From positions 72,882,978-72,915,963 of the forward strand of contig NC_057718.1 of the NCBI RefSeq assembly GCF_004010195.1: a stretch of DNA of 32,986 nt, read 5' to 3'. A model generated the notes under the pieces. It was given only the letters and a program-made list of their open reading frames with translations, did no database searches and was not told where the DNA came from. The position numbers and the translations under genes are program-made. Shown here piece after piece: positions 125 to 32,606 of the stretch. Position 1 is the first letter of the stretch. Each line of letters begins with the position of its first letter. The DNA comes from Chiloscyllium plagiosum (lineage: Eukaryota).

Positions 125-1095
125 CTACCATCGTTTGTGTGTAGCCGTGCTTCCTCACATCTTTCCTGAATGAAGGCAAAAGTGAGGACTGCAGATGCTG
201 GAGATTAGAGTGTGGTGGTGGAAAAGCACAGCAGGTCAAGCAGCATCTGAGGATGTTTTGGGCAAAAGACCTTTATCAGGAAGATTCCTGATGCCCGAAA
301 CTTAAATTCTCCTGCTCCTCGGATTCTACCTGACTTGTTGTGCTTTTCCAGCACCACACTTTCGACATCTTTCCTAATTCTAGCCCTAATTCTCAGATTA
401 TGCCCTCTATTTCTAGAATTCCCACCAGTGGAAATAGCTTATCTTTTCCAGTTAATATCTTGAAGATTTTGATAACATTGTGCTTTAGCCTTCTAAATTA
501 TAGAGAAAACAGGCCTAATTTGTATAATCTCTCCTCATAATAATCCCTGAAGTCCAGTTATAGTTCTTGTCAACCTACATTGTACTCTGTTCAAGGCCAA
601 TAAGGTGTGGTGCCAGGTCTGCTTACAGTAGTTAAAGTGGGGTCTAACCAAGTTTTGTATAACTGAAGCATACCTTCTGCATCTTTGTATTCCATCCACT
701 AGATATAAAGGGCAGCATTCCATTAGCTTTCTTTATTATTTTCTGTACCTGTTCATGGAATTTAAAGATCCATGCAACTCAACCCCCAGGTCTCTTTGGC
801 TATCCACTGTATTTAACTTCATACCTTCGAGAATGTACCCTCATCTATCCTTTTACAATCCAAAATGGATAACGTCACACTTGTTTACATTGAACTCCAT
901 CTACCTCAGTTTTTCCCAATCATTTAGTCTATCAATATCTCTTTGTAACTTTATGCTATCATCTACACTGTCTACAATGCCTCCTAGTGCAATTTTTGTC
1001 CAGACTGATTCTGCATTATAGCACTGATCTATTTTGTATAATAATTTTGTAAATAATCTTTGACATAAATTAGGAGAGCATAGAGGGACCATGGA
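125..1095 (-). mobile_element. Decayed CR1 LINE, RT C-terminal region (interrupted by 173-364)
   Basis: Minus-strand peptide TKIALGGIVDSVDDSIKLQRDIDRLNDW and LVRPHFNYC..W motif match CR1 ORF2; frameshifted. Confidence 0.75.
173..364 (-). mobile_element. Penelope-like family A fold-back (inverted-repeat) insertion
   Basis: Arms AGTGTGGTG..GGAAAAGCACAGCAGGTCA and TGAC..GTGCTTTTCCAGCACCACACT are reverse complements. Flanking direct repeat ACATCTTTCCT at 157-167 and 365-375. Degenerate hammerhead motifs at the centre. Confidence 0.8.
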
Positions 1096-1188
1096 AAATC
1101 ATTAGCAGACAATATTAAGAAAAATTCAAAGGCCTTTTATATGTATTAGAGCAAGAGGATTGCCAGGAAAGAATAAGGCCATTAAAGA

Positions 1189-1380
1189 GGAGAAAGTGAG
1201 GACTGCAGATCGGAGCTGATGTGTTGCTGGAAAAGAGCAGTAGTTCAGGCAGCATCCAAGGAGCAGAAGAATTGACGTTTCGGGCATGAGCCCTTCTTCC
1301 TCATTCCCGAAACGTCGATTCTCCTGCTCCTTGGATGCTGTCTGACCTGCTGTGCTTTTCCAGCAACACATTTTCAGTTC
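1189..1380 (-). mobile_element. Penelope-like family A fold-back insertion
   Basis: Inverted arms and terminus GGAGAAAGTGAGGACTGCAG. Perfect 14-bp TSD AAGGCCATTAAAGA at 1175-1188 and 1381-1394. Confidence 0.9.
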
Positions 1381-1722
1381 AAGGCCATTAAAGACCAATG
1401 TGTCAATCTGTGTGGAACCAAAATATCTGGCCAAGGTTTTAAGCGAATATTTGCATCAGCCTCTCCATAGAGAAAGATGATGTAGGTATAAAAATCAGTG
1501 TGGGTGTTGGACAGGATGTGCGGTGGTAAATGTGATACATTTGAATGAATTAGAACTAAGAAAGAGGAGGAATTAACAGTTGCAAATCCCCATTGCCAGA
1601 TGAGATGTATCCCAGGTTGTTACGGGAGACATTGTAGGGGCTAACGAGTTTTGAGAAGATTTGCAGCTCAGGTTGAGGTTCTGGTTGTAAGTTTGCTCGC
1701 TGAGCTAGAAGATTTGTTTTCA

Positions 1723-1756
1723 GACGTTTCATCACCATGCTAGGTAACATCATCAG
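1723..1756 (-). ncRNA. Minimal type-I hammerhead ribozyme motif (family C)
   Basis: Minus strand CUGAUGA-U-GUUACC(UAGCAU)GGUGAU-GAAAC-GUC; stem I UCA/UGA. Confidence 0.75.
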
Positions 1757-2160
1757 TGAGCCTCTGGTGAAGTGCTGGTGTTACATCCCACTTTCTATTT
1801 ATGTGTTTAGGTTTCCTGGGGTTGGTTATGTCATTTCCTGTGTTGGTGATGTCATTTCATGTTCTTTTTCTCAGAAGGTGGTAAATGGGGTCCAAATCGA
1901 TGTGTTTGTTGAAAGTGTTCTGTTTGGTATGCCATGCTTCTAGGGCTTTTTGTACGTGTATCTGTTTGGTTTGTCCTAGGATGGATATGTTGTCCCAGTC
2001 AAAGTAGTGTCCTTCTTCATCCGTATGTAAGGATACTAGTGATGGTGAGTCATGTCTTTTTGTGGCTGGTTGATGTTCATGTATCCTGGTGGCTAGTTTT
2101 CTGCCTGTTTGTCCAATGTAGCGTTTGTTACAGTTCTTGCAAGGTATTTTGTAAATGATG

Positions 2161-2372
2161 GCTGAAACTGTGTTGCTGGAAAAGCGCAGCAGGTCAGGCA
2201 GCATCCAAGGAGCAGGAGAATCGACGTTTCGGGCATGAGCCCTTCTTCAGGAAGAAGGACACATGCCTGAAACGTCGATTCTCCTGCTCCTTGGATGCTG
2301 CCTGACCTGCTGTGCTTTTCCAGCAACACATTTCAGCTCTGATCTCCAGCATCTGCAGTCCTCACTTTCTCC
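2161..2372 (+). mobile_element. Penelope-like family A fold-back insertion nested in the GIY-YIG domain of another PLE
   Basis: Inverted arms ending CTGCAGTCCTCACTTTCTCC. Perfect 16-bp TSD TATTTTGTAAATGATG at 2145-2160 and 2373-2388, which duplicates the IIYKI codons. Confidence 0.92.
2223..2250 (-). ncRNA. Minimal hammerhead ribozyme motif (family A), intact core
   Basis: Minus strand CUGAAGA-A-GGGC(UCAU)GCCC-GAAAC-GUC. Confidence 0.8.
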
Positions 2373-2869
2373 TATTTTGTAAATGATGTTTATTTTGCTT
2401 GTTGTCTGTATAGGGTCTTTTAAGTTCATTAGCTGCTGTGTGTTGGTGGGTTTGTGGGTTACCATGATGCCAAGAGGCCTGAGTAGTCTGGCAGTCATTT
2501 CCGAGATATCTTTGAGGTAGGGGAGAGTGGCTAGGGTTTCTGGTGAGTTTTGTCTGCTTGTTTGGGTTTGTTGCTGAGAAATTGGCGGACTGTGTTCATT
2601 TGCAGGGGTTCTTCAAATCCTCTCTAAACCACAAGAGGGATGCCAGAGAAGTGCTAACATTGTTCTATTATTCAAGAAGGGGTGGTGGGGATAAACCAGG
2701 ATATCAGCTACTGTGTCTAAAATTTCTGGTGGGGAAGCTATTGGAAAACATTCCGAGAGGCAGAATTAGGCTCCAATTAAATAGGCAAGGATTATTCAAA
2801 GATAATTAACATAAGGAGGAGATCATGTCTGACAAATCTAAATTTTTCGAGAAGGTCACTAGGTGTGTA

Positions 2870-3061
2870 TGATTTGGAGATGCTGGTGTTGGACTGGGGT
2901 GCACAAAGTTAAAAATCACACAGCGCCGGGTTATAGTCGAACAGGTTTATTTGGAAGCACTAGCTTTCAGAGTGCTACTCCTTCATCAGGTGATTGTCAG
3001 GTGCAGCACTCTGAAAGCTAGTGCTTCCAAATAAACCTGTTCGACTATAATCTGATTTTTA
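2870..3061 (-). mobile_element. Penelope-like family B fold-back insertion
   Basis: TTATAGTCGAACAGGTTTATTTGGAAGCACTAGCTTTCAGAGTGCT and its reverse complement. TSD ACTAGGTG(T/C)GTA at 2858-2869 and 3062-3073. Hammerhead motif on the minus strand at 2961-2989. Confidence 0.85.
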
Positions 3062-3324
3062 ACTAGGTGCGTAGATGAGCATAATTAAGATGATGTAGTC
3101 AACATGGACTTCAGTGTGCCTTTTGACAAGGCTTCATGGCAGACTGATCAATAAAGTAAGAACTAATGGGATCAACACAAATTTGGAATTTTGTAAACAA
3201 CATCCACTTAGCAGCTGAAAACAGAGGATGATGGTCAAACGTATTTTTGAGGCATGCCACAGGGTTGGTGCTGGGTCTATCGCTGTTTTAGTATATATTA
3301 ATTGCTCTGGGTTTGGTTGGAGTT

Positions 3325-4050
3325 TCTTTGGTGAGAGGTTGAATAATTTGGGTTTGTAATCATTGGAGCTTTGAAAACTAAAAAGCAACCTTATTGACAC
3401 ATAAGATTCTTAGTAAGTTTGAGAACATAGATTAGATTAGATTACTTACAGTGTGGAAACAGGCCCTTCGGCCCAACAAGTCCACACCGACCGGCCGAAG
3501 CACAACCCACCCATACCCCTACAATTACCCCTTTAATCTAACACTACGGGCAATTTAGCATGGCCAATTCACCTGACCCACATATCTTTGGACTGTGGGA
3601 GGAAACCGGAGCACCCGGAGGAAACCCACGCAGACACGGGGAGAATGTGCAAACTCCACACAGTCAGTCGCCTGAGTCGGGAATTGAACCCGGGTCTCTG
3701 GCGCTGTGAGGCAGCAGTGCTAACCACTGTGCCACCGTGCCGCCCATAGATGCTGATGGTTCTAGGCAAGTCTAGGATGAGAGGGTACGATCTCAGTAAG
3801 AGATCACCCATTTTAGAAAGAGATGAGAAGAAATCCTTTCTCTCAGAATGTAGTGAATCTGTGGAATTCTTTACTTCAGAGGACTGTTGAGGCTAAATCA
3901 TTAAGTATATTCAAGACAAGATAGAAGATTTCTAATCATGAAAGAATCAGAAATTAGGGGATAAGGCAGCAAAATGGAGTTGAGGATTATCAGATCAGAT
4001 TGGACTATCAGAGTAGCCTTCTTCTGTTACTATGACTTATGGTCTTATAA
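3325..4050 (+). mobile_element. CR1 LINE 3' end (interrupted by SINE)
   Basis: CR1 C-terminal FSQNVVNLWNSL motif (~3838-3873) and TATGACTTATGGTCTTAT tail. Confidence 0.7.
3433..3745 (-). mobile_element. Full-length HE1-type V-SINE (tRNA-derived)
   Basis: Minus strand GGGCGGCACGGTGGCACAGTGG (A box), GGTTCAATTCC (B box), V-domain GTGGAGTTTGCACATTCTCCCCGTGTCTGCGTGGGTTTCC and (AATCT)n tail. Possible short TSD ATAGAT. Confidence 0.92.
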
Positions 4051-4110
4051 TGCTTTTACAACTGTTGTACTCTGGGGTAAATCTTTTTATACATTGCTTT
4101 TTGTTTTCAG

Positions 4111-4141
4111 TTCAAGCTATCCGAATTGCAGGTGTGTGCAG
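4111..4141 (+). other. Candidate 31-nt micro-exon of an unidentified host gene
   Basis: Strong acceptor TTGCTTTTTGTTTTCAG, donor CAG|GTATGA, open in all three frames, in non-repetitive DNA. Splice signals are the only support. Confidence 0.3.
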
Positions 4142-5251
4142 GTATGACTCAGTTAATCTTACTCTTATATTTCATAGTCAAAGTGAGTTCTCTACATACA
4201 AGTGCAAGTAGAATGATTCTTAACCTCTTTTGCCATTTTTGGAGCTCCATTCATCTTTGCATTTGTTATTTAATATCAGTGAACTATCGCCTGGTGTGTT
4301 TACATTTTAAATTTTTATCTCATATCAGAAAATATTTTAGATTTTTTTCCATCTGAAACTGAGACTTTGTAGGAAGATCCAATTCTCAGAACAAATTACT
4401 TTTTATTGCATATCACTTATATTCACTTTTGTATTTCTATATGGTTTATCTTGTGCCCATTATTGAGTAAAACTCAGAAACTGCCTGTTGGAGTTGGCCA
4501 CAAATAAATTTATGAATAGCAGTGACTTCAATCAGTCACCACAGTGACCACTTCAAAAGACAGAATTACCTTTGGTAAATGAGTGTGAGAAAAGAAAAGC
4601 AGGGTCCTTGTTGCTTAGCACCCTGCAACCTTATATCTGCAAGTCTTTTTATAGCACTGTTCACAACTACTAGGCATCCTAAAGTAGTTCTCTATCATTT
4701 GAGTTTTTTTTTGTGGTGTAGTCGTCTTTGCAATGTGGGAGACATTGCCAATTTTGATACAACAAGCTTTCACAAACTGATTTTTTTCATTGGCTGCTCT
4801 TTTATTCATGAATGACATCTTTTCAGGACTGCAATTTTCAGTCTAGGTTTTTCAGTTGGCTGAACTGATTCTTGAATCCACAATCTTTGGTTTTATAGGG
4901 CAGAATGTCCCATGAGGTGCTGAGATCTGGAGTGCAGGACTTGCTTTCATATCTTTTCTCCCTTTCCAATGTTCTGGTTCATTATTATGGCTTTGGGAAT
5001 CAAAGTATAAGACCATAAGACCAAAAGAAGTAGGGAAAGGAATAGCCTGCTCCATCATTCAATAGGATCATGGCTGATCCAATATTTCTCAAGTCCACCT
5101 TCTTGGCCTTTCCCTGTAATAGCTTCATTCTGAATGATTGGTGATGGGCTCCTGCCATTCATTTAGCCATACTTCAAGGCTAGCTACAAAATGTCATTTG
5201 AGATGTTTCCTTTATCCTTCCCTGTTGGTCTTTTCAGAGTTCAGAAAACAG

Positions 5252-5334
5252 GATCTGGTTGCAAATAGTGTCCACTGCTAGGAAGCCAGGTCTATAAGTT
5301 AAACACTCAGAAAATCAGTATTTGCAACCAGATC
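5252..5334. repeat. 16-bp perfect inverted repeat, 51-nt spacer
   Basis: GATCTGGTTGCAAATA (5252-5267) and TATTTGCAACCAGATC (5319-5334). Confidence 0.9.
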
Positions 5335-6372
5335 TTTTATTCAGCAATTGTCCTATTGAATCTGAAGGATATAGTGGAAGCATTGCTGGTAGAATTTCCT
5401 TTATGCTGTTGTGTTTCGGTAATACATAATCCAACTCTTATGATTACGAGCCTGGTCTCAACAACTAGTCTGTACATTAGGACTGTTGTTGATGTGCTGA
5501 TGTCTTTGTAAAACACTTGCTACTATAGTTTGTAGAAGGCTGGACTTGTGCAGCTGATCAAAAGTTCAGTCTTCTCATCAATGGTAGCTTTTTGCGAGCA
5601 GTCATTTGTCAAGGTAAGGAAGGTGCTCAACATATTCTAGAATGTCTCCTTTGACATGTGTAAGAGATGAACAATTTGGATGACCAGGTGACCAGATTGT
5701 AATGAATTTTCTTTTGGCAAAAGTCTAAATTTCTTGCATTAAGAATTAACAATATCAAGACTGACTTCAGATCCAAAGCAGAATGCCTAACAACATGGTC
5801 ATACATACACAAATTACAGATAATTTATATCTATGGAGGTGTAATGGGTAAATCACTACAAGTTACCTCCAATTTGACCACTTATTAGGTAATCTTACCA
5901 TTAAGCCTCACAATGCAACTTGGCTATTACCTGATTAATGGTGGAATTTAGCTATAATTCCACTAACAGTGTCTACTTCTGAAAGTGTCCAGGGTTTAAT
6001 CCTTGTGCAGTGTTGTTTTTCTGCTTAAGAGTGAGTTCCAGTCTTCGATTCTTTACAGATTTTCATTGTTCATGTCTATGTGTGATATTATTGATGATTT
6101 TTTAAAAGTCCTTTCATCTGAATTAGTGCAACTTGCCTTCTTATCAGAGGTAGATTCTGTATTCCTTTTTACATTTGGGACCGATTGTCTGTTTAAAGAT
6201 ACAGCCTTCCTGCAGTTAACATCTTAAATTTTTCTTCAGGGCAATCTTTGTCCTTTGTGGCAATAAAGCCTCCAGTTTATCAAGCAGGTGTCAAAGCAAT
6301 TTTGTTTACATAATCTTGACTCCCTTTTTTCTAAGACATAGCTAATTTCTTTTAGTCTCAATGAAATAGCCT

Positions 6373-6594
6373 ATGGTTGATGGAATTTAACCATGACGAA
6401 TGATAAGATGTGCAAATTGGGTGGATTGGCCATGGTAAATGCAGAGCTATAGGGATGTTCTTCAGAGGGTTTGTGTAGACTCAATGGACTCAATGGCCAC
6501 TTTCCACACTGTAGGGATTCTATGATTCTATGAATGGGAAGTGCTGCACTTTGATAGAAGGAACAAGACGAGGGAGTACTCAATGCATGGCAAG
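6373..6594. repeat. 222-bp perfect inverted duplicate of 7590-7811
   Basis: Base-by-base reverse-complement identity; the ORF track gives the same peptide for both copies. Confidence 0.95.
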
Positions 6595-6944
6595 CTTATT
6601 TCAGATAGCATTATTACTACAGTTTTCCGTGTGTAACTTTATCTTTTGTTGATTCATTCCATCCATGAACAGTTCTGAATTCTATAATATCATGGAGGCA
6701 ACCGAGAGTAATGAGATCTCCATCTAGGAAGTATTTTATAGTCTTACAAGAGGCTAGTTAATCTTTGATTAAGTGAATAGCCACCGTCAGGTGGATTGTA
6801 CATAATATGATGGTTATTAACATTTCTTTGCCATATCCAGATTTTGAAGGTATCTGTTTCAGATCACCAACTCAAAACTAATTGTTCACATACCATCACC
6901 AAGCTATTGAAACTTGTGATGAAGTTACTTGAATATCCAAATTC

Positions 6945-7270
6945 ACAATCCACAGAGCCAAGAGCAGGGAGTTGATGTTGAATTTTATAAAACACTTATT
7001 TAGCCACATCTGGAGTATTGTGTGCAGTTCTTGGGGCCACATTAAAAAGGATGTGAAAGCATTAGACAGAGTGCAGAGGAGCTTTATGAGAATAGTTCGA
7101 GGGATGAAGAACTTCAGCTATGAGAATGGATTGAACAGATTGGGACTGTAATGCTTGGAGAGAAGAAGAGGAGACCTGATGGAGGTTTTCAAAATCCTCA
7201 GCAAAATGGATAGAGTAGATGGGGAGAAGCTATTTTGGCTCATAAAAGGAACCAAAACAAGAGGGAATTA
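6945..7270 (+). mobile_element. CR1 LINE C-terminal fragment
   Basis: PHLEYCVQF and ERRRGDLMEVFKIL motifs. Confidence 0.75.
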
Positions 7271-7651
7271 TCATAGAATCGTTCAGTCAAATCTGTACCA
7301 CCAAAAATATATTACTATCAACTCTAATTCCACTATCCAGCACTAGGTCCATAGCTTTGAATATTATGACAATTCACGTGTTCAGCAAAATATTTTTTAA
7401 TGGCTGTAAGGTTTCTTGCCTCAATTATCCTCTCATGTAATGCATTCCAGACCACTACCAATATTTGGATGAAAATATTTCCCTCAAATCCCCTCTCAAC
7501 CTCCTGCCTTTCACTTTAAAATTATACCAAATTAAGGGATCTGTGGGCAAGTACCTGAGATCCTTTTGTTTCTCTGAGCTTCCTAGTGTCTTGCCATGCA
7601 TTGAGTACTCCCTCGTCTTGTTCCTTCTATCAAAGTGCAGCACTTCCCATT

Positions 7652-7780
7652 CATAGAATCATAGAATCCCTACAGTGTGGAAAGTGGCCATTGAGTCCAT
7701 TGAGTCTACACAAACCCTCTGAAGAACATCCCTATAGCTCTGCATTTACCATGGCCAATCCACCCAATTTGCACATCTTA
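7652..7780 (-). mobile_element. HE1-related SINE 3' fragment nested in CR1
   Basis: CATAGAATCATAGAATCCCTACAGTGTGGAAA tail and CATGGCCAATCCACC resemble the HE1 3' part. Confidence 0.7.
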
Positions 7781-9112
7781 TCATTCGTCATGGTTAAATT
7801 CCATCAACCATTAACATGCCGATCCGATCAATCTATTTATATCCTCCTGTACCATAAGAAATTCTTCCTTACTGATATGTGCCTGACCAATCTTTGTGTT
7901 ACCTGCAAACTTACTCTCACATTCTATATTATTCATGAATTTTATAAACAATAAGGGATCCAGCACAGATCCCTGTGGTACACCACTGCACACCAGGCTC
8001 CAGGCACACAAACAGTCATCTGCAACTGCCCTCTGTCTCTTATAATTAAGCTAATTTTGGAACCATCTTGCCAAGTCACCCTGGATCCTTTGAGCTTTTA
8101 TCATCCTTACCAGTTTTGCATGTGGGATTTTGTCCTCATGTTTTCCTGAAATCCATATTACCTATACCTTCACCCTCATGCCTGCTCACCTCCACAAAAA
8201 TTTCCACCATTTTGTTCAAAGGCATGACCTCCTTCTGGTAAGGTTATGCTGATTATCTCTGATCAAACCATACCTCTTTAAATGGGGATTAATTTTCTCT
8301 TTCACTATTTTCTCAAGTAGTTTCCCTAACACTGATGTTAGATCACTTGTCTGTCATTCTCTGATCTATTGTAATCGCTTTTCCTGTAAAGTGGAACCAC
8401 ATTAGTTGTCTTTCAATTCTTTAGCACCTCCATTGCAGTCAGAGGTGATTTAAAATTTGGATAATGGCCCCTGTAATTTCCTCCCTCATCTCCCACAACA
8501 GTTTGGGATATGACTCATCTGGACTGGGGAATCTGCCTACTTTTAGATCCATCAAGTCCTCCAATACCTCCTCATTTCTTATTCTCAATCGGCTCAAGAC
8601 CTTCACAGTCCATCTTCTCAAATTCTGTACTTGGAATCTGCTTCTCCCAAGTAAAAATAGATGTGAAGTATTCATTTAACATTCTACCAATGTGCTCCAG
8701 CTTCACACACACATATTAGGTCGTACTATTTTCCTAGTTATTCTTTTCTCCATGGTATACTTATAGAACATCTTGGGATTCTCTCTTGTCTTGCTCGCCA
8801 ATGTTTTCCCATGCCCCTTCTTTGCTCTCCTAATTGTTTTATTGACCTCCTTCCTGCATGTCCTATAATCCTCCAGGGCCTCAGTTGTTTTGAACTCTTT
8901 ATCTCTGTTATATGCCTCTCTTTTCCATTTTATCCAATCCTGAATATTCTTAGACATCCATGGTTCTCTGGAATTGTTGGTCCTATTTTTCACCTTAAAG
9001 GGAACGTTCTGGGCCTGTAATCCTCCAGTATCTTTTTAATTGCCTCCCCCTGTTCAGCCTTGGATTTACCCTCAAGTAAATGTTCCCAATCTATTTTGGC
9101 CAGCTCCTGCCT

Positions 9113-9190
9113 TGTTGATGTAAAGCTGGAAATGCACAACAGGTTAGATAGCATCCGAGAAGCAGGAAAGTCAATGTTTCGGGCCAAAAC
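9113..9190 (-). mobile_element. Penelope-like family A fragment
   Basis: GCTGGAAATGCACAACAGG...AGCATCCGAGAAGCAGG...TTTCGGGC; ends within hammerhead stem II. Confidence 0.65.
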
Positions 9191-9985
9191 TCGGTATTGT
9201 GGTCGCTTTCACGAGAATGCTCCCCCAATGTCACTTTGAATATACCTATCCAACTTCATTCCCCAGAATTAAGTTCAACACTGCGCTGTCTCTTGTAGGA
9301 CCATTTATATGTTTACTCAAAAAGCTCTCCTGTACATATTTCAAGAAATCTATCCCCTCTAAACCCTTGAAAATATGATTACCCCAATTAATATTAGGGT
9401 ACTTAAAATCCCCTCATGTAATTATCCTGTTATTATTTTTACATGCCTTTGTAAATTGACTACATATTTGCTGCTCAATTACTTGATTGTTTGTGGCCTA
9501 TAATCCGCTCCTAACAGTGGGACCAACCCTTTTTATTCCTAGGCCGCAAAGCCTCATTCGATGACCATTCCAAGATATCTTCCCTGCTTATTGCAGTAAC
9601 TAACTCCCGAACTAATAATGCAACACCACTTCCACTTTTGCACATTCCCCTGTCCTGCCTGAGGATACAATACCCTGAAAAATTAAATTGCCAGGCTTAA
9701 CCGTGTCTCTATGATGGCAACATTGCAGTTCCATGAATCAACCGATGCCCTTAATTATAATACATAGCGCATTACAGTAGAGGCCCTGAGGCCTTACCTT
9801 ACTCTCCTGAGACATAACATGACTGAACTTGCTGCACTTTGATGCTGTTTCTAAGTTATATGTGTTGATATTGAACCAACTCAGTGTGTTTCTTGCCCCT
9901 ACTGAACTAGTTTAAATTCTTCCCAACAGCATGAGCAAACCCTTCTGCAGCAATGTTGGTTCCATTCTGATTCAGGTGTGACTGA

Positions 9986-10515
9986 CCCACTTATCCCAGT
10001 TCCAACCTTCCAGCTCAGCACTATCCTCATGACCTGTCCCACCTAACAATCTTCCTTCCCACCTATCCGCTCCACTCTCCTCTCTGACCTATCACCTCCA
10101 TCCCCACCCCCATTCACCTATTGTACTCTTTGCTACCTTCTCCCCAGCCCAACCCCCCCATTTATCTCTCCACTCTGGAGGCTTACTGCCTCTATTCATG
10201 ATGAAGGGCTTTTGCCCGAAATGTCGATTCTCCTGCTCCTCGGATGCTGCCTGACCTGCTGTGCTTTTTCAGCACCACTCGGATCTAGACTCTGGTGTCC
10301 ACTTTTGCCTCACTTTTGCCTAGTTGAAGAAGTTCTCCTCTCTCCACAAGAATCTCAGTGAGTCTCTCTCTCACTGCAACCCCCAGGTCATCTCCTCTGC
10401 CCGAAAGCTCTTCAACCATGTACTGAAACAGACTCGCTACCACAGCCACACTTGCATCCTCAGTGCCTGCCTCCGTAACCAACTGTTCCCACATGGACTC
10501 CGGACTACATTCAAC
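9986..10515 (+). mobile_element. Penelope-like family A parent fragment: 3'UTR, hammerhead, pLTR end and start of ORF
   Basis: A pyrimidine-rich UTR and mutated hammerhead (ATGATGAAGGGCTTTTGCCCGAAATGTC, ~10198-10225) precede the family A arm. It runs into KLFNHVLKQTRYHSHTCILSACLRNQLFPHGL, resembling the PLE N-terminal H..FL..C....P.G motif. Confidence 0.75.
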
Positions 10516-10519
10516 GACA

Positions 10520-12690: not shown

Positions 12691-12810
12691 TAGGTATAAT
12701 AATTATCGTGTGTTTAGCTTTTAGACTCCATAAATCTATTTTTATTTGTGCTTAGCATTTTGTAAGTTGAATTCTTCTTCTTGGGAGTTCAAAGGTTGTT
12801 GTATAGGATC

Positions 12811-17496: not shown

Positions 17497-17678
17497 GGAG
17501 AAAGTGAGGACTGCAGATGCTGGAGATTAGAGCTGAAAAATGTGTTGCTGGAAAAGTGCAGCAGGTCAGGCAGCATCCAAGGAGCAGGAGAATCGACATT
17601 TCAGGCATAAGCCCTTCTTCAGGAAGGGCTTATGCCCGAAATGTCGATTCTCCTGCTCCTTGGATGCTGCCTGACCTC
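17497..17678 (-). mobile_element. Penelope-like family A fold-back insertion
   Basis: Inverted arms centred on CCCTTCTTCAGGAAGGG. 15-bp TSD CATTGACAACCA(T/C)TG at 17482-17496 and 17679-17693. Confidence 0.9.
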
Positions 17679-18886
17679 CATTGACAACCACTGACTGACC
17701 ACAACAGTAATCAGATAGCAAAAATGAAACTTATGGCCTTTCAAGCCAAGTCAAACTTTACAATGATTTGACCATTATTGTTATATTCTAGCATCATAGT
17801 ATCTTTACTAGAGTAGCACTCATTGAATTTGAGTGATCTGTAAATCTTTAAAAACAAGTATGTTAGGTATTGAGATCACGCAGACAGAAGCACTGTTGTG
17901 AAGTATATTACATGGATTTGAATTTCAAAATAACTTTGACTGTTGCTAAAACTTTTCTCAAAGTGGAAATGATCACAGTGAATAATTTAAAGACATGAAG
18001 TAAAATACAGAAAGCAAATGATTCTGACATGTTCAGCCCATTGTATTAAATTTTTTTAACGGATGGATCCTGAGTTCAGAGAGCAGTGTCAAACAGCTTG
18101 GTGAAAGCTATGTAATACCATTTTTGAATTTGAATTTCAAAATGGAGGCTGTTATGTGTTAATTCTGAGAGCGAGTTTCTTTATTAAGAAACCAGATCAG
18201 TGGATCCATTCAAAGCAATGATTAAAAACAATATTTTGTCAGAGAGCAGGTGATAGTGGATCCTATAATGTTAATGGAAAGATATTTATACTTTTGGATT
18301 TATCCAGTACACATGTAACACTTTTAGCTTTGTTTTCAGTTCAATAGGAATTAGAATGAACAAGGTTTCTTTTTATAAATTCAGTTTAGAAGATTCCAGT
18401 GTTAAGTTTAGAGGTCAGTTTAGTTCTCACCTAGAAGCAATTCAGGGAACAAGTTATCCTCAGCAGTTTAATTTGTTAAACGTTTCAAGCCAGAAGAATT
18501 TGGTTAGACGTCTCCTGGTTATTGAAACTGAGAAAATTTCAACTTTCAGATTTATAAGAAATTCATGCTGACAGATTTAGAAAGGACTAATTGAATCAAC
18601 TTCTTTGTCTACGGCAAAGCACCTGGAGAAGTCAGTTAAGTAGAACCCTAAATAGTTGCAATGAGGGCGACAATTTCTCTGGATTTGAGTCTGTGTAATG
18701 GCTAGTGTTGGGAAACAGTTTGAAATCATTCTAACTGTATATATTTAGACAGTTTGTATTTTAAAAAGCAATATTTATTTTTGTATGAGAAACTGGTGTT
18801 TTGTCATTTAATACAAAAGGCAGAGCTGAAAATGTGTTGCTGGAAAAGCGCAGCAGGTCAGGCAGCATCCAGGGAACAGGAGAATC

Positions 18887-18914
18887 GACGTTTCGGGCAT
18901 AAGCCCTTCTTCAG
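18887..18914 (-). ncRNA. Minimal hammerhead ribozyme motif (family A), intact core
   Basis: Minus strand CUGAAGA-A-GGGC(UUAU)GCCC-GAAAC-GUC. Confidence 0.8.
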
Positions 18915-18916
18915 GA

Positions 18917-19091
18917 NNNNNNNNNNNNNNNNNNNNNNNNNNNNNNNNNNNNNNNNNNNNNNNNNNNNNNNNNNNNNNNNNNNNNNNNNNNNNNNNNNNN
19001 NNNNNNNNNNNNNNNNNNNNNNNNNNNNNNNNNNNNNNNNNNNNNNNNNNNNNNNNNNNNNNNNNNNNNNNNNNNNNNNNNNNNNNNNNNN
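18917..19091. other. Assembly gap (175 N)
   Basis: Run of N. Confidence 1.
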
Positions 19092-19095
19092 ATTC

Positions 19096-19123
19096 CTGAA
19101 GAAGGGCTTATGCTCGAAACGTC
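19096..19123 (+). ncRNA. Minimal hammerhead ribozyme motif (family A), intact core
   Basis: CUGAAGA-A-GGGC(UUAU)GCUC-GAAAC-GUC, with one G-U pair in stem II. Confidence 0.78.
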
Positions 19124-19339
19124 GATTCTCCTGTTCCCTGGATGCTGCCTGACCTGCTGCGCTTTTCCAGCAACACATTTTCAGCTCTGATCTCCAGTAT
19201 CTGCAGACCTCACTTTCTCCTAATACAAAAGGCGCCCTCATGTGAATATTGCTCAGTGACTAATCACAACTTTAATTAATTAAACAATAAAATGTGTTCT
19301 ACCAAGCCAGATTTCATTCTGAGATGTGACTTTTACATC

Positions 19340-21270
19340 AGTTGGAGTCATAATAGCCTACTTGAAAATTGAATTAATGCCTGAGTGTTGTTGTTTGAAA
19401 GATAAAATATTCATGAGGTAACAGAAATTATTTCTGATACTCACCAACGAGGAAAGGACAGTATCTCATTAGGTGGTATTTCCATCTGAATAATATAACA
19501 AATGTTTGACTGGTTCACAAAATTCCAATAGCAGGTCACTTAAGTAATAGGAAGCACAAGCTAAAATATTACAACAATTTTATTGGCCAGGGTTACATAA
19601 GATTGTGGATAAATTTTGCCAGACATGCTATATATGCCAGGTAGTAGAGAAACGATAATGCGTACCTTTGCTTATGGTACAAACTTTCAAAGAACAATTT
19701 AGCACGGACATAACAAATTGTGAAGGACCCTGACCTAAAACCAAAAATGGGAATCAATATCTTTTAACAATACTGGATGAACAGGATTTCCTAAAGCGAT
19801 ATGTTTGGGGAAAATTACAGCAAAAAAGGAAAATTTAGCACATTTTTAAAATAAGATATGGATTACCCAAAGGAATACAATTTGGTCAGAGTTCAAATTT
19901 TATCTCGCAAATATTTGATGATGTAATGAATAGTTAGGAAAATTAGAAAGTTTGCATCAAGCATTAAATATTTTAAAAAACTTTATTGGATCATATTGTC
20001 AGGAATGTCCTAATGATTGGGGTAAAGGAATTCTCTTGTTATTTTTTATCATTAATGATGCCCCTAGTGAGTCCATGAGATTCAATCCTTTTGAACTGAT
20101 CTATGGACAGGAGGTGGAAGGATCCTTTAAGTTACTTAAATCAAAATTCAAAAACTACACTTCTGACCAAATATCAAAAACTAATGAAAATTTGTGAGTT
20201 AGCCAAAAAGCATTTAAAGAATCCTCAACAAAAAATGAAAATTACAGCAGTTAAAAAGGCAGTTCAGAATTTTGTAGCTAGAAACAAGGTATTAGTAGTA
20301 TTATCTGTCTCTGAGGAACTATTAAAACTAAAATTCATAGATCTTAACAAATAAAAAAAACCTCCGTTATGTGAAATAAGCAGTGAGTTATGTGAAATAA
20401 GCAGCAATAGGGAAAGAACATCAGGAAATAGATCATGCTTTACAGGTTGACATAATATCACAACAGGGAATAAGTATCTTACAATAGATGAAGAAATAAA
20501 AAAACAGAGCAATTTGAGAAGGAGTCATAAATTGAAATTCAAGTCATCTCTCTAGTAATCAGATTAGACAATACGAGGTGCTTGGAAAGTTAAATACAAT
20601 ACTATGTTACCTCCCATAAAGTGTTCAAGATGACTTACAGAATCTACTAGAATCTTAAAAAACAATTCATGCAAATACATCTGGAAAAAATGTCTTTGGC
20701 TGTACATGATGTTCATAATGTGATGTAGTGGATACACTCCCCTTAAAATAACAACATTACAGATTCAAAGGAGGTAGTCCAAGTGAGGGAAAAGATCGCA
20801 TTGTTGACGAACAAAGTCATTACTGAACTGTCATAGTAGCTGGAATTATCTATCATGCTGGTGCCAAAATGAATTGGATCACAACAACTTTGAATAGATT
20901 TAAAAAAAAAATCCTTTATAGGATGTGGGTGTTGTTGATTAGGCCAGCTTTTATCACCCATCCCTAGTTGTCCAGAGAATAATTCTGCTGTGGGTGTGGA
21001 GTCACATGTAGGTCAGATCAGGACAGGATGGCTGATACCTTTTTCTAAAGGACATTAGTGAACCAGATGGATTTTATAGAAATTGACAATGGCCTCCATT
21101 AGGATAGCTTATTGGATTCAAATGTTACTCCCTGCAATGGTGGGATTCGAACCTATGCCCCCAGATCCTAGGGTCATGGATTACTAGCCCAGGGAGATTA
21201 CCACTTCACTGCTCCATCTGTTGCCACAAGGAAAATTTGATTCATATTCAATTTTATAAGTGGAGGACTA
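19340..21270 (+). mobile_element. Highly decayed Gmr1-like gypsy LTR retrotransposon pol (integrase then RT start)
   Basis: HHCC: VHKIPIAGHL...FYWPGLHK..FCQTCYICQ. Core: PKTKNGNQYLLTI, RYGLPK and PFELIYG. Then the RT start IMLVPK*IGSQQL*ID (~20850-20900) and DSYSIL*VED (~21240-21270). Confidence 0.75.
20901..21212 (-). mobile_element. tRNA-derived SINE (non-HE1 family), decayed
   Basis: B box GGTTCGAATCC on the minus strand (21143-21153); interrupts the gypsy RT motifs. Confidence 0.65.
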
Positions 21271-21272
21271 CT

Positions 21273-22168
21273 TGTACTATAAAGCAAAGGTTGACCTCCC
21301 TCTGTAAACTAAAACCCGAACTCCCAAAGAGGTGTGCCTCACCCTAGAATCTGTAAAAGGAGTATGAAAAGTGGTGTAACTTGCTCTTCATCAATTTCTA
21401 GGAGTTAAATAAAAATAATTCCCTGACACCCACTTTAAACTCAACAAGTAACAATTTAGTTATCTAACTCTAACAGTGAACAAATTAACTAAATTATTAA
21501 CAAGTTGAAACTTTATTGCTGGAACAGCACAGCAGGTCAGGCAGCATCCAGGGAACAGGAGATTCGACGTTTCGGGCACAGGCCCTTTCTAACTTCTAAT
21601 ATTCCCAAATAAAACAAGATTCTGATGGCATGCTGTTCCAGTAAATATAAGTCCTCTTATATACATAAAAAAACAAGTCTCTTGAAATGACAGCCAGACT
21701 ACGTGTCTTCTAGAATGTCCTGTGCCTCCTCCATCAACTCTTCTGTCAGTAATGCTTTTCTGCTCAGATTCTTCTGTCAGGAATGCCTTTTTCTATTGTT
21801 GATATGTTTTTTTTAGATGATTGTGAGAGCCAATTTCTCTTTCAAGAAAGAGAGCTGAGGGGCATTAGCTCTTGTGGATGGCAGCTTGCTCTGGGGACTT
21901 TGTCCAACTGCCCCCTTCTTTTATATCCTTGATGACATATCAGTTTCTTATAATAAGATTGGTCTTATGTTGTCAAAACCATCAGATTTAAATTTAATAG
22001 GTTTTTGATATTTAAGTGCCTGGTTTAAGTTGAATGAGTAAACGTAAAGGGACTGGAAAGAGTTGTCTTGGTATAAACTGCTGCTTGGCCTGCTAAATGT
22101 ATGGTCTTTTGAAGCAAATGTTTCAGTTCAGGTGTTCTCTAATCCTGCAAACTTTAAAGCTGCTCACA
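21273..22168 (-). mobile_element. Possible solo LTR
   Basis: Begins TGT and ends ACA, starting where gypsy RT homology stops. Minus-strand CCAAT (21958-21962) and TATAAAAG (21918-21925). No TSD seen. Confidence 0.3.
21504..21586 (-). mobile_element. Penelope-like family A fragment
   Basis: TTGCTGGAACAGCACAGCAGGTCAGGCAGCATCC...GACGTTTCGGGCACAGGCCCT; stops right after hammerhead stem II. Confidence 0.8.
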
Positions 22169-22172
22169 GACA

Positions 22173-22583
22173 TGATTTGGAGATGCTGGTGTTGGACTGG
22201 GGTGTACAAACTTAAAAATCACACAACACCAGGTTATAGTCCAACAGGTTTAATTGGAAGCACTAGCTTTCGGAGTCCCACTCCTTCATCAGGTGGTTGT
22301 GGAGGACACAATTGTAAGACACAGAATTTATAGTAAAAGTTTACAGTGTGATGTATACATTGAAAAATACCTTGATTGTTTGATGAGTCTTTCATCTGTT
22401 AAAATGCCATGATAGTTTTACTTCTTTCATATGTAAATCACAAAACGTTTTTTTAAGAGTTACATTCTCAGGTTAACTGTAAGAATTGGTGTTAGCCAGA
22501 TAATATGTTGAAGGTGTTAGCCCCCTGTGTTCTCTGTCTGTGCCATAATGTTTAGACTGATTCTAATCTAAAAAGTGAGTTAG
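22173..22583 (-). mobile_element. Penelope-like family B 3' end with UTR
   Basis: Same terminus TGATTTGGAGATGCTGGTGTTGGACTGG as 2870 and 26683; contains a hammerhead motif. Confidence 0.8.
22264..22292 (-). ncRNA. Minimal hammerhead ribozyme motif (family B), intact core
   Basis: Minus strand CUGAUGA-A-GGAG(UGGGA)CUCC-GAAAG-CUA; stem I CAC/GUG. Confidence 0.78.
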
Positions 22584-22887
22584 CACTTTTGATTGATTAC
22601 AAAAAGCTGATTTGGTCATAAATCTGAGAAGAAGTGTTTTTGTCAAAGCAGAAATAACTTAATTGATCCACATAGGGCCAAGACCATACAGCCAAATAGG
22701 GTCTAAAGAAACAAAAGTAACGGCTATCTTGAATCTCATTGTGCCTAAGAGTGACTAGATTTTATTAGATGTTTATTCCAAATTTCATCACCACAGTGCC
22801 TCTTTTCACAAATATGTTTGTTAAAAGGTAGAAAATTCACACTGATGAAGGAATATCTGATAAATCATCTTTGCATTCTTTCAATAG

Positions 22888-23353
22888 GAGGTTGCTGGAA
22901 CTGCAGGGTTTGAGTTATAACGAGAGGCTATATAGACTGGGACTTTTTTCACTGGAGCGTAGGAGATTGAGGGGTGACTTTATAGAGATTTATAAAATCA
23001 TGAGGGACATAGATAAGGTGAAGACCAAAGGTCTTTTGCCTCGGTTGGGGAGTGTTCAAAACTAGTGGGCTTATTTTTAAGGTGAGAGGAGAAAGATTTA
23101 AAAGGAACATGTGAGGCAATCTTTTCACATTGAGGATGGTTCGTATGTTAAATGAATTGCTAGAGGAAGTGGTAGATGCAGGTACAGTTGCAACATTTAA
23201 AAGAAATTTGGATAAGTACATGAATAGGAAATTGTTTAGAGGGCTATGGACCAAATGCAGGCAAGTGGGATTAGTTTACTTTGGGAAACTTGGTCAGCAT
23301 GGATGAGTTGGACTAAAGGGTCTGTTTCCGTGCTGTATGACTCTATGACTCTA
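22888..23353 (+). mobile_element. CR1 LINE 3' end
   Basis: LSYNERLYRLGLFSLERRRLRGDFIEIYKIM; (CTATGACT)n tail. Confidence 0.9.
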
Positions 23354-23357
23354 CAGC

Positions 23358-23576
23358 CAAGAGAGTGGTGCTGGAAAAGCATAGCAGGTCAGGTAGTATC
23401 CGAGAAGCAGGAAAATCGATGTTTTGGGCAAAAACCCTTTATCAGGAAGCCCTGATGAAGGGCTTTTGCCCAAAACGACGATTTTTCTGCGCCTTGAATG
23501 CTACCTGACCTGCTGTGCTTTTCCAGCACCACACTCTTGGCTCTAATCTCCAGCATCTGCAGTACTCACTTTCACC
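23358..23576 (+). mobile_element. Penelope-like family A fold-back insertion
   Basis: Inverted arms centred on ATCAGGAAGCCCTGAT. 16-bp TSD TCTATGACT(C/T)TACAGC at 23342-23357 and 23577-23592. Confidence 0.88.
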
Positions 23577-24886
23577 TCTATGACTTTACAGCTCATTGAC
23601 TTTATTTTATAATAGCCAGAACATCCTTTCTCAGATAAAGAATTCAAAACAGCACACAATAACCTGCCATCTAGTCACATTATATTTAATCTGCCATTTT
23701 CCCACTTACCTAACTTGTACCATGGTATATACCCCCACCCAGCTTTGTATGATCTGTAAATGTGGATATATTTAAATCATTTATATAGGTTGTAAGTAGC
23801 TGGGTTCCAAATATTGATCCCACTATTGCCTGTCACTCAAAAAAAGTTCCATTTATACCTACTCTATGTTTCTCAACTGCCAATTAGTTCTCAATCTATT
23901 TCTGTTCATGACTTCCAATCCCATGCACTTTAGTTTTGCATGAAATCTCTTAAATGGGACATCATATAAAGCCTTCTGAAAATCCAAGTAGATCATATCT
24001 ACTGGCTCACGTTATCCACTCAAATATTCCAGCAGATTTGTCAAACACAACTTCCCCTTTGTGAATCCATGTTAGGTCTGTCTGATATTGTCACTATCTT
24101 CCCCAAATATTCTGTTATTACATCTTTTAATGGATTCTAGCATTTTCCCACTGCTGATATCAGGCTTCCAGGTCTATAATTCACTGTTTTCTCTCTGTCT
24201 CCCATCTTAATTAGTGGTGTTACATTCGCAACCTTCCAAACGATAAGAACTGTTCTTCAGTGTATAGAACTTTGGAAGATCACCAATAGTGCATCTGCCA
24301 CTTCGAGAGTCCCTTCCTTAAGTACTTGAGGATGAAGCTTTTCATGCCTTGGGATTTTAACTGCCTTCAATCCTGTTAGTTTCCTCAGCATAAATATTAA
24401 TTTCTTTCAATTCTTCCTTCCCATTAATCCTTGTTTTCCCCAATATTTTTGGGATAGTTTTGGGATCTTCCTTTGTGAAGACAGAATAAAAAGTTATATT
24501 TAATTGGTCCACCATCTCTTGTTCCTCATTATAAATTAATCTGTTTATCTATCAGAGACCTATATTAATCCTTACTAATCTTTTTATCTTCACATTCATA
24601 TAGGAAACTGTTCCCGATTACACCAATTTGTATGCCTATCCTTGGATTTGGCACTATCCCTAATTTCCTTTGTTGGCATTGATCTGATCATCTCTCCCAT
24701 TTTACTTTTATGCCAGACTGGGATGAGTAACTTTTGCAGTTTGTCATGTGTTTTTTAAATGTGTTTACCATTGCCTAGCTACTGTCATGCCTGTCAATGA
24801 TGATCCTCAATTTATCAGAGCAAGCTGGCTCTTTGTAATTTCCTTTATTTAAACTCATTCTCTATCTTAATGAAGAATTCTATTCT

Positions 24887-25986
24887 TTTTTTCTTCTTTT
24901 TAGGAAATTCGGAGTCCCCTTTTTTTTATCCCTTACCTCTACACCACCGCCTAACTGCGGCAGTGCTTATATTTTCCCCAGCACCCATGTTGTGTGTGTG
25001 TGTGCAGGTGTGAGACATAGTGAAAAACACAAGGTATACAAATCTTTATTCAATTTCCACCACCAGGAAAAATGGAAACACCAGGGTGACCAGTGACAAG
25101 CAGTGCTCTTCTCAGAGGGCAATGCTGCGTGATTAGACAGTGAAGGGGAGGGCAGGAATTAAATCAAAATAGAGTTGGAGGGGGAAATAATACACTCCAC
25201 TCCCTGTGGTGCCCACCTTTCCCTGAAAATCTCAAGATTGTTGGTGGACATCGCATGCTCCTTTGGAGCATCATTCCTGATGAAGGGCTTTTGCCTGAAA
25301 CGTCGATTTTCCTGCTCCTCGGATGCTGCCTGTGACCTGCTGTGCTTTTCCAGCACCACTCTGATCTAAACTGGTTTCCAGCATCTGCAGTCCTCACGCG
25401 TGCTCCTTCTCCAGAGACACCTGGTCTCTGACATAACCGCAGAAGACGGGCAGGCAATCGGCCATAACGACCCCCTCCATGGCCCACTGCTTGGATCTGT
25501 TTATGGCCAGTTTGGCCAGGCCCGGGAACAGACCCACGAGAAGGTCCTCTGACGTACCCTCTCCTCTCCAGATTGGGTGGCCAAAGATCAGGAGCGTTGG
25601 ACTGAAGTGCAACCTAAAACAGAGGAGGAGGTTTTCTAAAAAATCAAAAAGGGAGTGTAAGCCCTCACACCCAATGTATACACAGGACCGCAGAACAAGC
25701 AGTTGGGCTGGGAGTTTGTGAACCACCGCAATCTGCTGTTGCAGGGGACTGCCACATGCAGCACCCTCCACCCCAGATCCCTGAGAGAAAGGGAGGGACT
25801 CCCACGTAGAGAGCCCTCCACTGGGCATTCCGAGAACCGGGTGGCAATGGGCATGACAAAGCGTGTCCGGGTGGTGGATGAGGAGAAGAGGTGGACGGTG
25901 TGCAGTAGCAGTCTGTACAGGAACCGCCATTTTATGTCCCTAAAAGGGGACAAAACTAAAACTCCGGAGGCAGCTCAGACTGTGGG
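24887..25986 (-). mobile_element. 5'-truncated Tx1-clade LINE (ORF2 C-terminus, 3'UTR, poly A)
   Basis: Minus-strand DLGWRVLH, CLFCG zinc-knuckle remnant, GLAKLAINRSKQ and FRERWAP. Perfect 15-bp TSD GAAGAATTCTATTCT at 24872-24886 and 25987-26001. Confidence 0.85.
25272..25397 (+). mobile_element. Penelope-like family A single-arm insertion with hammerhead (25277-25304)
   Basis: CTGATGA-A-GGGC(TTTT)GCCT-GAAAC-GTC followed by the family arm. TSD CGC(A/G)TGCTCCTT at 25252-25263 and 25397-25408 duplicates the KEHA codons of the Tx1 ORF. Confidence 0.85.
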
Positions 25987-26346
25987 GAAGAATTCTATTC
26001 TATTGTGGTTACTCTTCCCTAACTGCCCATGCACAACTTAATTGTCAATTACTCCTTCTTTGTTACACAATACCCAGTCAAGAGTGGCCTTTCTTCTGGT
26101 TCACAGCTCAACATTTTGATTCACAAAACTATCCTGGACATACTCAATGAGTTCCTCTATGCTACTTTTCCCAATTTATGTGCAGTTTGAAGTCATCCAT
26201 AATTATCGCCATATCTTTATTGCCTATGAACGTAGAACATAGAATAGTACAGCACAAGGCAGGCCCTTCAGCCCCTAATATTGTGCCGACCATTCATCCT
26301 ACTTGTTTCTCTAATTTCCTTCTGAATGGCTTCTCCAATATTACTA

Positions 26347-27051
26347 TAGGTAGTTCTGGGATAACGCTCATTTCAGCAGTGCGATTTGGCTATAATGTCA
26401 CTGAAGAATTAGGGAACAATATTTTCGAGAACGTTTCCCTCCATTTGCAATAGCGCGATTCTATAGCACGATTGCCCGGTTCATTCTGCGCATGCATTGG
26501 TGACCACGCTGTTCTGCTCATGCTCGATTTCAGGACCGGTCTTAGTGCATGAATGTCAGCTGCTGAAAAGGCAGCTTTCTGTGAGAGGTACTGTACAGAC
26601 AACAGCATTCTTACATTTTTAAAATGTACTGTGTTAAATTTACTTTTGTTTTGTTAATAAATATGACTTCAACCTTCATTCATAATTTAGAGATGGCGGT
26701 ATTGGACTGGGATGTACAAAGTTAAAAATCACACAACACAACAGGTTTAATTGGAAGCACTAGCTTTCAGAGCGCAGCTCCTTCATCAGGTGATTTTGGA
26801 GTATAAGATCGTAAGACACATAATTTATAGCAAAAGTTTAGTGTGTTGTAACTGAAATGATATATTAAAAAAGACCTGGATTGTTTGTTAACCTTCATTC
26901 AGGCTGTGTTATACTTTGGGTGATTTTTGAGTGATCAAGAGTGTTATTTTTTATTGGTCTGCCACACCCCCACTTTTCCCATTGGCCCCATTATTTCTAT
27001 TAAACTAGATTTTGCAGGAATGCAACTGCGGCATTATGGGAGAACTATCTG
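26347..27051. mobile_element. Non-autonomous Tc1/mariner (Tigger/pogo-like) DNA transposon remnant
   Basis: Degenerate 21-bp TIRs TAGGTAGTTCTGGGATAACGC and GCATTATGGGAGAACTATCTG, flanked by TA on both sides. Confidence 0.55.
26683..26889 (-). mobile_element. Penelope-like family B 3' end
   Basis: Family B terminus and hammerhead motif at 26761-26789 (minus). Perfect 12-bp TSD AACCTTCATTCA at 26671-26682 and 26890-26901. Confidence 0.85.
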
Positions 27052-27139
27052 TATTACAAATTGGGTGACTGTTTAGAATCACTACCCTTGTTTTCTGCCC
27101 CTTGGTGTTTCTAAGCTCAACCCATGTGAATTCTAAATA

Positions 27140-27273
27140 AAATCCGAAAGAACTGCGGATCCTGTAAATCAGAAACAAAAATAGAAATGGCTGAAAATGC
27201 TCAGCGGGTCTAGCGGCATCGATGAAGAGAAATTAGAGTTAACATTTCAAGTCCAGTGACCCTTCCTCAGAAC
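27140..27273 (-). mobile_element. Penelope-like family D 3' end with degenerate hammerhead (27241-27270)
   Basis: Minus strand CUGAGGA-A-GGGUC(ACUG)GACUU-GAAAU-GUU, followed by a GATGCCGCTAGACCCGCTGAGC motif related to family A GATGCTGCCTGACCTGCTG. Confidence 0.7.
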
Positions 27274-27444
27274 CTGTAGATTCTATTTCATCAGAGTTAA
27301 TATTCTTCCTCCTCATAACCACATTAATTTATTTCTTATTCAGCAGAGCAACCCCACCTCCTTTTTATTTTTGTCTGTCTTTTCTAAAAACTGAAAACCT
27401 TTGGATATTCTGTTCCCATTCCTAGTCATCCTGCAGCTATTGGC

Positions 27445-32605: not shown

Positions 32606-32606
32606 T

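Follow-up and report, generated by a model that had tools for sequence, protein, structure and literature searches.

Short hammerhead-bearing insertions in a bamboo shark genome end at the front edge of the ribozyme, probably at a transcript start

The window analyzed here is a stretch of 32,986 nucleotides from the bamboo shark Chiloscyllium plagiosum (contig NC_057718.1, positions 72,882,978 to 72,915,963) that contains 16 insertions bearing a minimal hammerhead ribozyme. The short inserts among them are complementary DNA (cDNA) copies of the ribozyme-plus-tail end module of a Penelope-like retrotransposon (Penelope-like element, PLE). Their 5' ends cluster at the front edge of the hammerhead, and this clustering is real. 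The ends probably pile up there (at a rough probability of 60%) because the template RNA is predicted to start 4-8 nt before the ribozyme core, with reverse transcriptase (RT) priming internally and running off at the cap.

Clustering of 5' ends at the ribozyme

Motif scans and profile searches identified 24 arms in the 16 insertions, which belong to four families (A-D); two weak profile matches (E 0.32 and 0.97) are left out of the count. Positions are numbered in the ribozyme sense from the C of the CUGANGA core (+1), and the coordinates of all insertions are collected in Table 1. The predicted cut falls after +28 in family A, +29 in family B, +30 in family D, and +34 in family C. Target-site duplications (TSDs) of 12-17 bp accompany nine of the 13 insertions tested, so most ends are insertion ends. 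TSDs were looked for and none found at 9119, 21503, and 22172, and the one at 27141 is doubtful; the arms at 9119 and 21503, which have neither TSD nor tail, could be later deletions.

Counts of ends omit the gapped fold-back at 18822-19220, whose center is hidden. In the others, 5' ends lie within -10 to about +13 of the core in 10 of 15 insertions and 16 of 22 arms; five of the 15 insertions extend far beyond the core, and one arm is very short. Of the 16 arm ends scored, ten lie 5' of the core and six lie inside the core or stem II (+3 to +13). A scan test against a fitted geometric decay (with the 22172 end set approximately) gives P=5e-5, and the smooth decay without a peak that a first-pass annotation of the window had named as the refuting pattern is not borne out. 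A best-case binomial test with a fixed window gives 1e-7 to 2e-4. Steeper assumed decays (0.018-0.04 per nt) raise the scan-test P to 0.03-0.58; such decays are not adequate because they are unable to yield the five long copies.

The first-pass annotation had proposed that truncation and inversion breakpoints gather at the ribozyme. The six fold-back centers it listed lie where it placed them, and its four single-arm stops are confirmed. It was right that breakpoints lie upstream of the predicted cut rather than at it; the distance is 18-38 nt and not 5-35 nt. The cleavage site itself was rejected as the breakpoint, since the ends lie upstream of it and no step in read depth occurs there. The four exceptions that it named are all genuine long copies, yet 22173, 26683, and 32607 are 3' ends, and the corresponding copies extend upstream of the core by no less than 98, 98, and 238 nt before their 5' ends. 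Its list mixed at least three families and omitted the seventh fold-back (18822-19220), a fifth long exception (1630-2600), and the arm at 32930-32986.

Read depth and loose ends in family A

A genome-wide breakpoint histogram was approximated by aligning four public runs to positions 32570-32986, with the long family A copy as the reference, at 88% likeness; the check covers family A only. The aligned material comprised 56,185 contigs from run X1, 63,252 from X2, and 5,516 from X17, plus 2,600 raw RNA reads from X21. Depth, which is summed word depth rather than copy number and to which one run may contribute the assembly's own sample, falls between +12..+25 and -4..-17 to 0.28 in X1 and 0.31 in X2, a loss of about 70%. 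At the 5' edge of the core the loss is 0.042-0.045 per nt versus at most 0.008 per nt elsewhere. Across the cleavage site the depth ratio is 1.02.

Loose ends peak at the same place. Among the best 24 of 964 loose ends, the top end in X1 is at 32696 (-4), with 115 contigs, and the flanks beyond it are unrelated (agreement 0.33); a loose end at -3 is found in X17, again among the best 24 of 964. Joints between copies on the same strand leave the long arm at +8 to -4 in 10 of 13 cases (among the best 15 of 254 joints). The histogram called for by the first-pass annotation, in this approximation on one long copy, has both a step and a loose-end peak at the front edge of the core.

Predicted promoter and transcript start

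The modal 5' end coincides with promoter-like sequence. In the long family A copy at 32607, position -4 is the A of the sole match to the human initiator consensus BBCABW (as given in the excerpt of PMC5287114) within 60 nt upstream, against a background of 1.5% per position, and a TTTAT box lies 31 nt before it. In family B, the only initiator match in the copy at 22172 has its A at -8 (22300), and the TATA match is at -40 (22326-22332). TATAWAW is at -40 in both long family B copies (26823-26829 in the copy at 26683), 32 nt before -8, and the sole family B fold-back has an arm ending at that same -8 offset. Focused RNA polymerase II core promoters pair an initiator with a TATA-like box some 23-33 nt upstream; overall, an initiator match stands at the breakpoint in two of the four long A and B copies. 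In family C, CATAAA lies at -47 and the initiator is matched at -1; by eye, the anole template sequence printed in PMC11167929 contains a run of TATA at -45 and matches the initiator at -14. Because the motifs occur at the end positions and the offset shifts with the TATA-like box between families (-4 and -8), a transcript end fits the data better than an RT stop. The first-pass annotation had mentioned a nearby transcript end as one possible cause, and this part of its proposal gains support from the initiator match behind a TATA-like box and from the junction of the module with an open reading frame (ORF).

Bases at the junctions offer a further lead. An untemplated G can mark a copied cap, according to the available text of PMC9341517. 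A sense G precedes the end in three of three joints at -4 or -5 versus one of nine elsewhere (Fisher p=0.018, among the best 12 of 278), and a sense G is also present at the window junctions 283 and 27274.

Several observations weigh against a start at the ribozyme edge. The TATA-like element of family A is only TTTAT, the copy at 9984 has no initiator match at -4, and the copy at 26683 has none at -8. Family B supplies a single breakpoint, and the family D arm at 27273 has no long copy of its family to serve as an upstream reference. The arm at 1297 reaches -10, the arm at 25272 reaches -5 and has no G, and a second accumulation of X1 ends lies at -8 (58 contigs). Evidence for a cap G is slight: position 2998 may also belong to a 6-nt direct repeat, and fold-back arms could be the source of the C seen in the loose-end consensus. 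Some of the depth step may be due to subfamilies whose upstream sequence is not that of the reference, and by estimate the step could be nearer 2-fold than 3.3-fold; depth at the shared ORF end is 1.5-1.8 M versus 9-11 M at the ribozyme. The 2,600 raw single-cell RNA reads of X21 reveal no site where many molecules begin, a weak test because the reads come from both strands of a fragmented poly(A) library. Finally, excerpts of PMC2377424 and PMC4209133 place the start of D. virilis Penelope well upstream and describe an intron that extends as far as helix I; not all of these elements, then, start at the edge of the ribozyme.

Proposed mechanism

Biochemistry of an anole element supports this reading. 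In the text available from PMC11167929, the anole enzyme primes both strands and begins at two internal sites flanking the tail, uncleaved RNA is the main substrate, the product shortens when the template is truncated at its 5' end, and core mutants leave the product unchanged in vitro. In the proposed course, the shark pseudo long terminal repeat (pLTR) would drive RNA polymerase II from an initiator located about 31-32 nt downstream of the TATA-like box, which would place the hammerhead first in the transcript. The element protein would then prime reverse transcription internally at two sites flanking the tail, 90-125 nt from the RNA 5' end, with full-length RNA or read-through RNA from 3' pLTRs as the template. 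RT would copy through the uncleaved ribozyme and run off at the cap, setting the 95-130 nt size. With both target strands primed, two cDNAs would be linked head to head, often by way of three complementary core bases (TTC/GAA), and this joining would shift one arm end some bases into the core. Long copies would derive from RNAs that have the module at their 3' end.

A tentative and rather doubtful extension is a retrovirus-like cycle of strong-stop synthesis and strand transfer. Here RT would prime near the mRNA 5' end and run off at the cap, and the ribozyme cut in the 3' pLTR would provide a terminal repeat of about 32 nt for a jump that rebuilds the pLTR; stubs and fold-backs would be strong-stop products inserted before the jump. 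Were this so, the PLE hammerhead would gain a function, and genomic stubs would be a fossil map of PLE start sites.

Alternative explanations

The ends could instead be those of trimmed RNA, if longer transcripts were decapped or cut and then chewed 5' to 3' as far as a protein-bound hammerhead, with 3-8 nt left before the core and RT running off there. Ends do hug stem I in three families (-3 to -8), and the anole ribozyme cleaves only with the element protein (in the portion of PMC11167929 available), so the protein probably binds or folds the ribozyme. Trimming is nevertheless unlikely: it does not account for the exact fall of ends on initiator A's 31-32 nt behind TATA-like boxes or for the G bias, and the motif on its own is barely structured in a fold test.

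The other cause offered by the first-pass annotation, a folded or dimeric hammerhead that stalls RT and triggers template switching, fares slightly worse and is not upheld. The six inner ends, two arms with deletions across stem II, and a palindromic stem III that permits dimers in intact copies all suit such a stall. However, because RT approaches the core from the tail, ends produced by a structural block would be expected on the 3' side of the motif, whereas most ends, including the modal one, are on the 5' side, beyond structure that had already been copied. Depth does not fall at the 3' edge of the structure (the ratio of 1.02 given above), the region folds no better than shuffled sequence (z -1.1 to +0.6 in five of five copies), and stem I has 1-4 bp. 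Core mutants of the anole element, as described in the same partial source, had no effect on product size in vitro. Pairing of TTC/GAA with a partner arm reaching -3 or -10 accounts, moreover, for three of the six inner ends; the shared bases read as joining by microhomology.

Joining driven by sequence could by itself be responsible, with cDNAs of differing length, or a single cDNA folded on itself, resolving at the TTC/GAA of the core, or palindrome centers being deleted back to TTC/GAA after insertion. TTC/GAA is shared exactly at three of six centers, the center of the 17497 fold-back is a perfect hairpin with a 5-nt loop, and the two arms of a young fold-back resemble each other more than they resemble other copies (0.99 and 0.96); self-priming has been proposed for rotifer Penelope in the available part of PMC3846280. 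As the source of the clustering it is improbable, since the same end position is seen in single-arm copies whose flanks are unrelated (the loose ends, 25272, and 27273), 3-nt homology is common everywhere, and family B does not have the TTC/GAA motif.

Common descent would make the breakpoints non-independent if amplification had begun from a small number of short masters whose 5' end was fixed. The copies do fall into subfamilies with shared variants, and non-autonomous Penelope derivatives are described in excerpts of PMC8557442 and bioRxiv 10.64898/2026.07.22.740005. Yet no two of the six centers are the same, similar behavior is seen in at least three families and several subfamilies, the sequences past the end show no relation to one another (agreement 0.33-0.43), and the longer arm can be either the tail arm or the tail-less arm, all of which makes descent a decidedly poor candidate. 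A spliced template, with the end as an intron acceptor like the D. virilis Penelope intron end that maps to the 5' end of helix I (PMC4209133, in part), was rejected as scarcely credible, since there is no AG before -4 in family A or -8 in family B and no shared exon past the end (loose-end agreement 0.33).

Structure and coding content of the insertions

All parts of a minimal type I hammerhead are present: CUGANGA, an extra base, stem II, GAAA, stem III, NUH, and stem I. Stem II has 4-6 bp in all 13 cores scored, stem I has 1-4 bp, and stem III is palindromic in eight. Judged from the sequence, self-cleavage of the family A hammerhead is doubtful given a stem I of only 2 bp. A search of the window against Rfam gave no hammerhead match at the gathering score, and the raw CTGANGA count is mildly raised (35 vs 22.7). 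An inverted 5'-truncated copy adjoins the 5' end in eight of the 16 insertions (the seven fold-backs and 32607). Each of these eight units has one tail, 30-40 nt long and on a single arm; the distance from the core to the arm end is 120-126 nt with the tail and 86-93 nt without it.

In the long family A copy at 9984-10510 the tail is followed directly by an ORF N-terminus (10324-10509), which makes the ribozyme-plus-tail module the front of a transcription unit as well. A pLTR abutting the ORF start is thus seen in this copy, and the core ATG of family C also opens a frame. Across 10201-10509, the core ATG and the ORF of the 9984 copy share one frame, and a stop codon breaks it after 18 codons; this stop is TGA in nearly all copies and TAA in one. 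The tail closes with a pyrimidine run and AG directly before the ORF, resembling a splice acceptor. A 62-amino-acid piece of the family A ORF is 75-79% identical to two bamboo shark proteins. Pfam detects no domain in the piece or in these two proteins, and a search for longer relatives of the ORF found none and no link to RT. A check of whether frame shifts could restore a PLE motif was positive in one of the two shark proteins; among 200 shuffles, however, a looser form of the motif could likewise be obtained in 31 and 46. Endonuclease-positive PLEs encode a telomerase-like RT with a GIY-YIG endonuclease at the C-terminus; family C keeps a GIY-YIG piece (Pfam, E=7e-4, under the gathering cut-off), and families B and D have no ORF within the window. 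Pattern scans for further copies returned none in viral contigs and none in prokaryote genomes; 17 metagenome matches were dismissed as chance, each covering only 20-26 nt.

Individual fold-backs have further features of their own. The sole N gap of the window (18917-19091, 175 N) is the center of the youngest fold-back; perfect hairpins probably break assembly, and such copies may be under-counted. Two fold-back arms have stem II deletions with short direct repeats at the deletion ends, one of 11 nt (288-294, in the plus-strand -4 arm of the 172 fold-back) and one of 18 nt (1306-1308, in the -10 arm of the 1189 fold-back) that removes the core and stem II. The second arm of the 17497 fold-back (17623-17676) stops near +58, before both usual 3' start sites, and fold-back synthesis fits this short arm better than priming at a start site. 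At the 5' junction of the single arm at 25264, an 8-nt filler (25264-25271) repeats the element's own target site in inverted orientation, suggesting that a free target end folded back during joining.

The window is rich in remnants of long and short interspersed nuclear elements (LINEs and SINEs). The copy at 25272 is hosted by a remnant of a different LINE-like element (25164-26041), which had no Pfam match in the one frame tested. Decayed LINE and SINE pieces also make up a 222-nt inverted pair (6373-6594 and 7590-7811) that is 100% identical and 995 nt apart, either a recent inverted duplication or a mis-assembly.

Table 1. Hammerhead-bearing insertions and the predicted family A promoter in the window; ends are relative to the core (C of CUGANGA, +1).
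Position	Family	Type	Strand	Core	5' ends of arms	Junction or other features	TSD
172..364	A	fold-back			-3 (tail arm, minus); -4 (plus-strand arm)	single G at 283 between arms	157-171/365-379, 2 mismatches
1189..1380	A	fold-back			+3 (tail arm); -10 (other arm)	shared TTC 1297-1299	14 bp
2161..2372	A	fold-back, within family C			-3; +3 (tail arm)	shared GAA 2251-2253	16 bp
2870..3059	B	fold-back			-8 (tail arm, 2997); +8 (other arm, 2999)	one base between arms; center 2997-2999	14 bp, 2 mismatches
17497..17676	A	fold-back			-3 (tail arm); +6 (short arm)	shared GAA 17623-17625	17 bp, 2 mismatches
18822..19220	A	fold-back, youngest			at least -2 and -4	arms 99% alike	13 bp
23358..23575	A	fold-back			-3; -1 (tail arm)	2 filler bases; center 23448-23451	17 bp
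9119..9190	A	single arm, old	minus		in stem II, about +11 to +13 (9190)	no tail	none found
21503..21588	A	single arm	minus		about +7 (21587)	no tail	none found
25264..25396	A	single arm with tail	plus		-5 (25272)	8-nt filler	12 bp
27141..27274	D	single arm	minus		about -3 (27273)	preceded by one sense G	possible, 11 bp, 2 mismatches (by eye)
1630..2600	C	long Penelope/Poseidon-type remnant	minus	1756	about 850 nt past core	GIY-YIG piece	
9984..10510	A	long copy	plus	10198	about 214 nt upstream region	tail, ORF piece; ended by LINE-like insertion	
22172..22420	B	long copy	minus	22292	not fixed, beyond -98		none found
26683..26887	B	long copy	minus		-98		14 bp
32607..32986	A	long copy	minus	32692	reaches -238	joined head to head with 57-nt inverted tail arm (32930-32986) ending about 40 nt downstream of cut	
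32694..32727	A	predicted core promoter	minus			TTTAT at -35 (32723-32727); initiator A at -4 (32696)	

Comparison with known systems

The elements and the layout of an inverted copy plus a tail are known already, and they are otherwise ordinary; the analysis adds the read-based step, the initiator and TATA match, the family-specific offset, and the cap-G lead. A literature search found no published statement of a 5' peak or of a link to promoter motifs, although figure supplements of PMC11167929 or subscription papers may show such a peak, and the term "strong-stop" is absent from the papers among the matches listed.

Retroviral minus-strand strong-stop DNA is primed near the RNA 5' end and runs off at the cap, and in L1 twin priming two target-primed cDNAs are joined by microhomology. 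The window elements have no tRNA primer, LTR, or poly(A). Their arms also overlap fully rather than covering adjacent parts as in twin priming, with the exception of the 32607 copy. Non-LTR retrozymes, as described in the excerpt of bioRxiv 10.64898/2026.07.22.740005, form head-to-tail tandem units with a hammerhead in each; tandem arrays of this kind were rejected for the window, where copies are solo or head to head and no head-to-tail units occur.

The closest match is with endonuclease-positive PLEs (Penelope/Poseidon and Neptune), which in the available parts of PMC8557442 and PMC3846280 have a pLTR, an adjacent inverted 5'-truncated copy, and a 30-40 bp tail. Shared features include the head-to-head copy, the tail on a single arm, TSDs, a small overlap or palindrome at the junction, and gaps in assemblies. 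These elements are described there as truncated, with no mention of a peak, whereas the window arms are mostly stubs of 55-130 nt whose 5' ends peak at one position. The minimal hammerheads of metazoan PLE pLTRs, as excerpted from PMC4209133, have the same core, extra base before stem II, short stem I, and palindromic stem III, and likewise are mostly solo motifs from truncated elements with some opposite-strand pairs. That paper proposes cleavage and circularization. In contrast, the window stubs start roughly 30 nt ahead of the cut, which means that their template was uncleaved RNA, and stem I of family A has its 2 bp only.

How PLEs build their pLTRs and what the hammerhead does are described as open questions in the accessible text of PMC11167929 and PMC8557442. 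The sharp 5' end in front of the ribozyme shows that the RNA templates used in vivo are usually uncleaved, in line with the in vitro result. Anole Poseidon, in the excerpt of PMC11167929, shares with the window elements two 3' ends flanking the tail (85-130 nt downstream of the core), priming on both strands, and a module at the junction of pLTR and ORF; the text available there explains the 3' ends of copies and not their 5' ends. If the 5' end is a transcription start, many thousands of dead copies record it, and the idea can be tested in the anole system and in any assembly.

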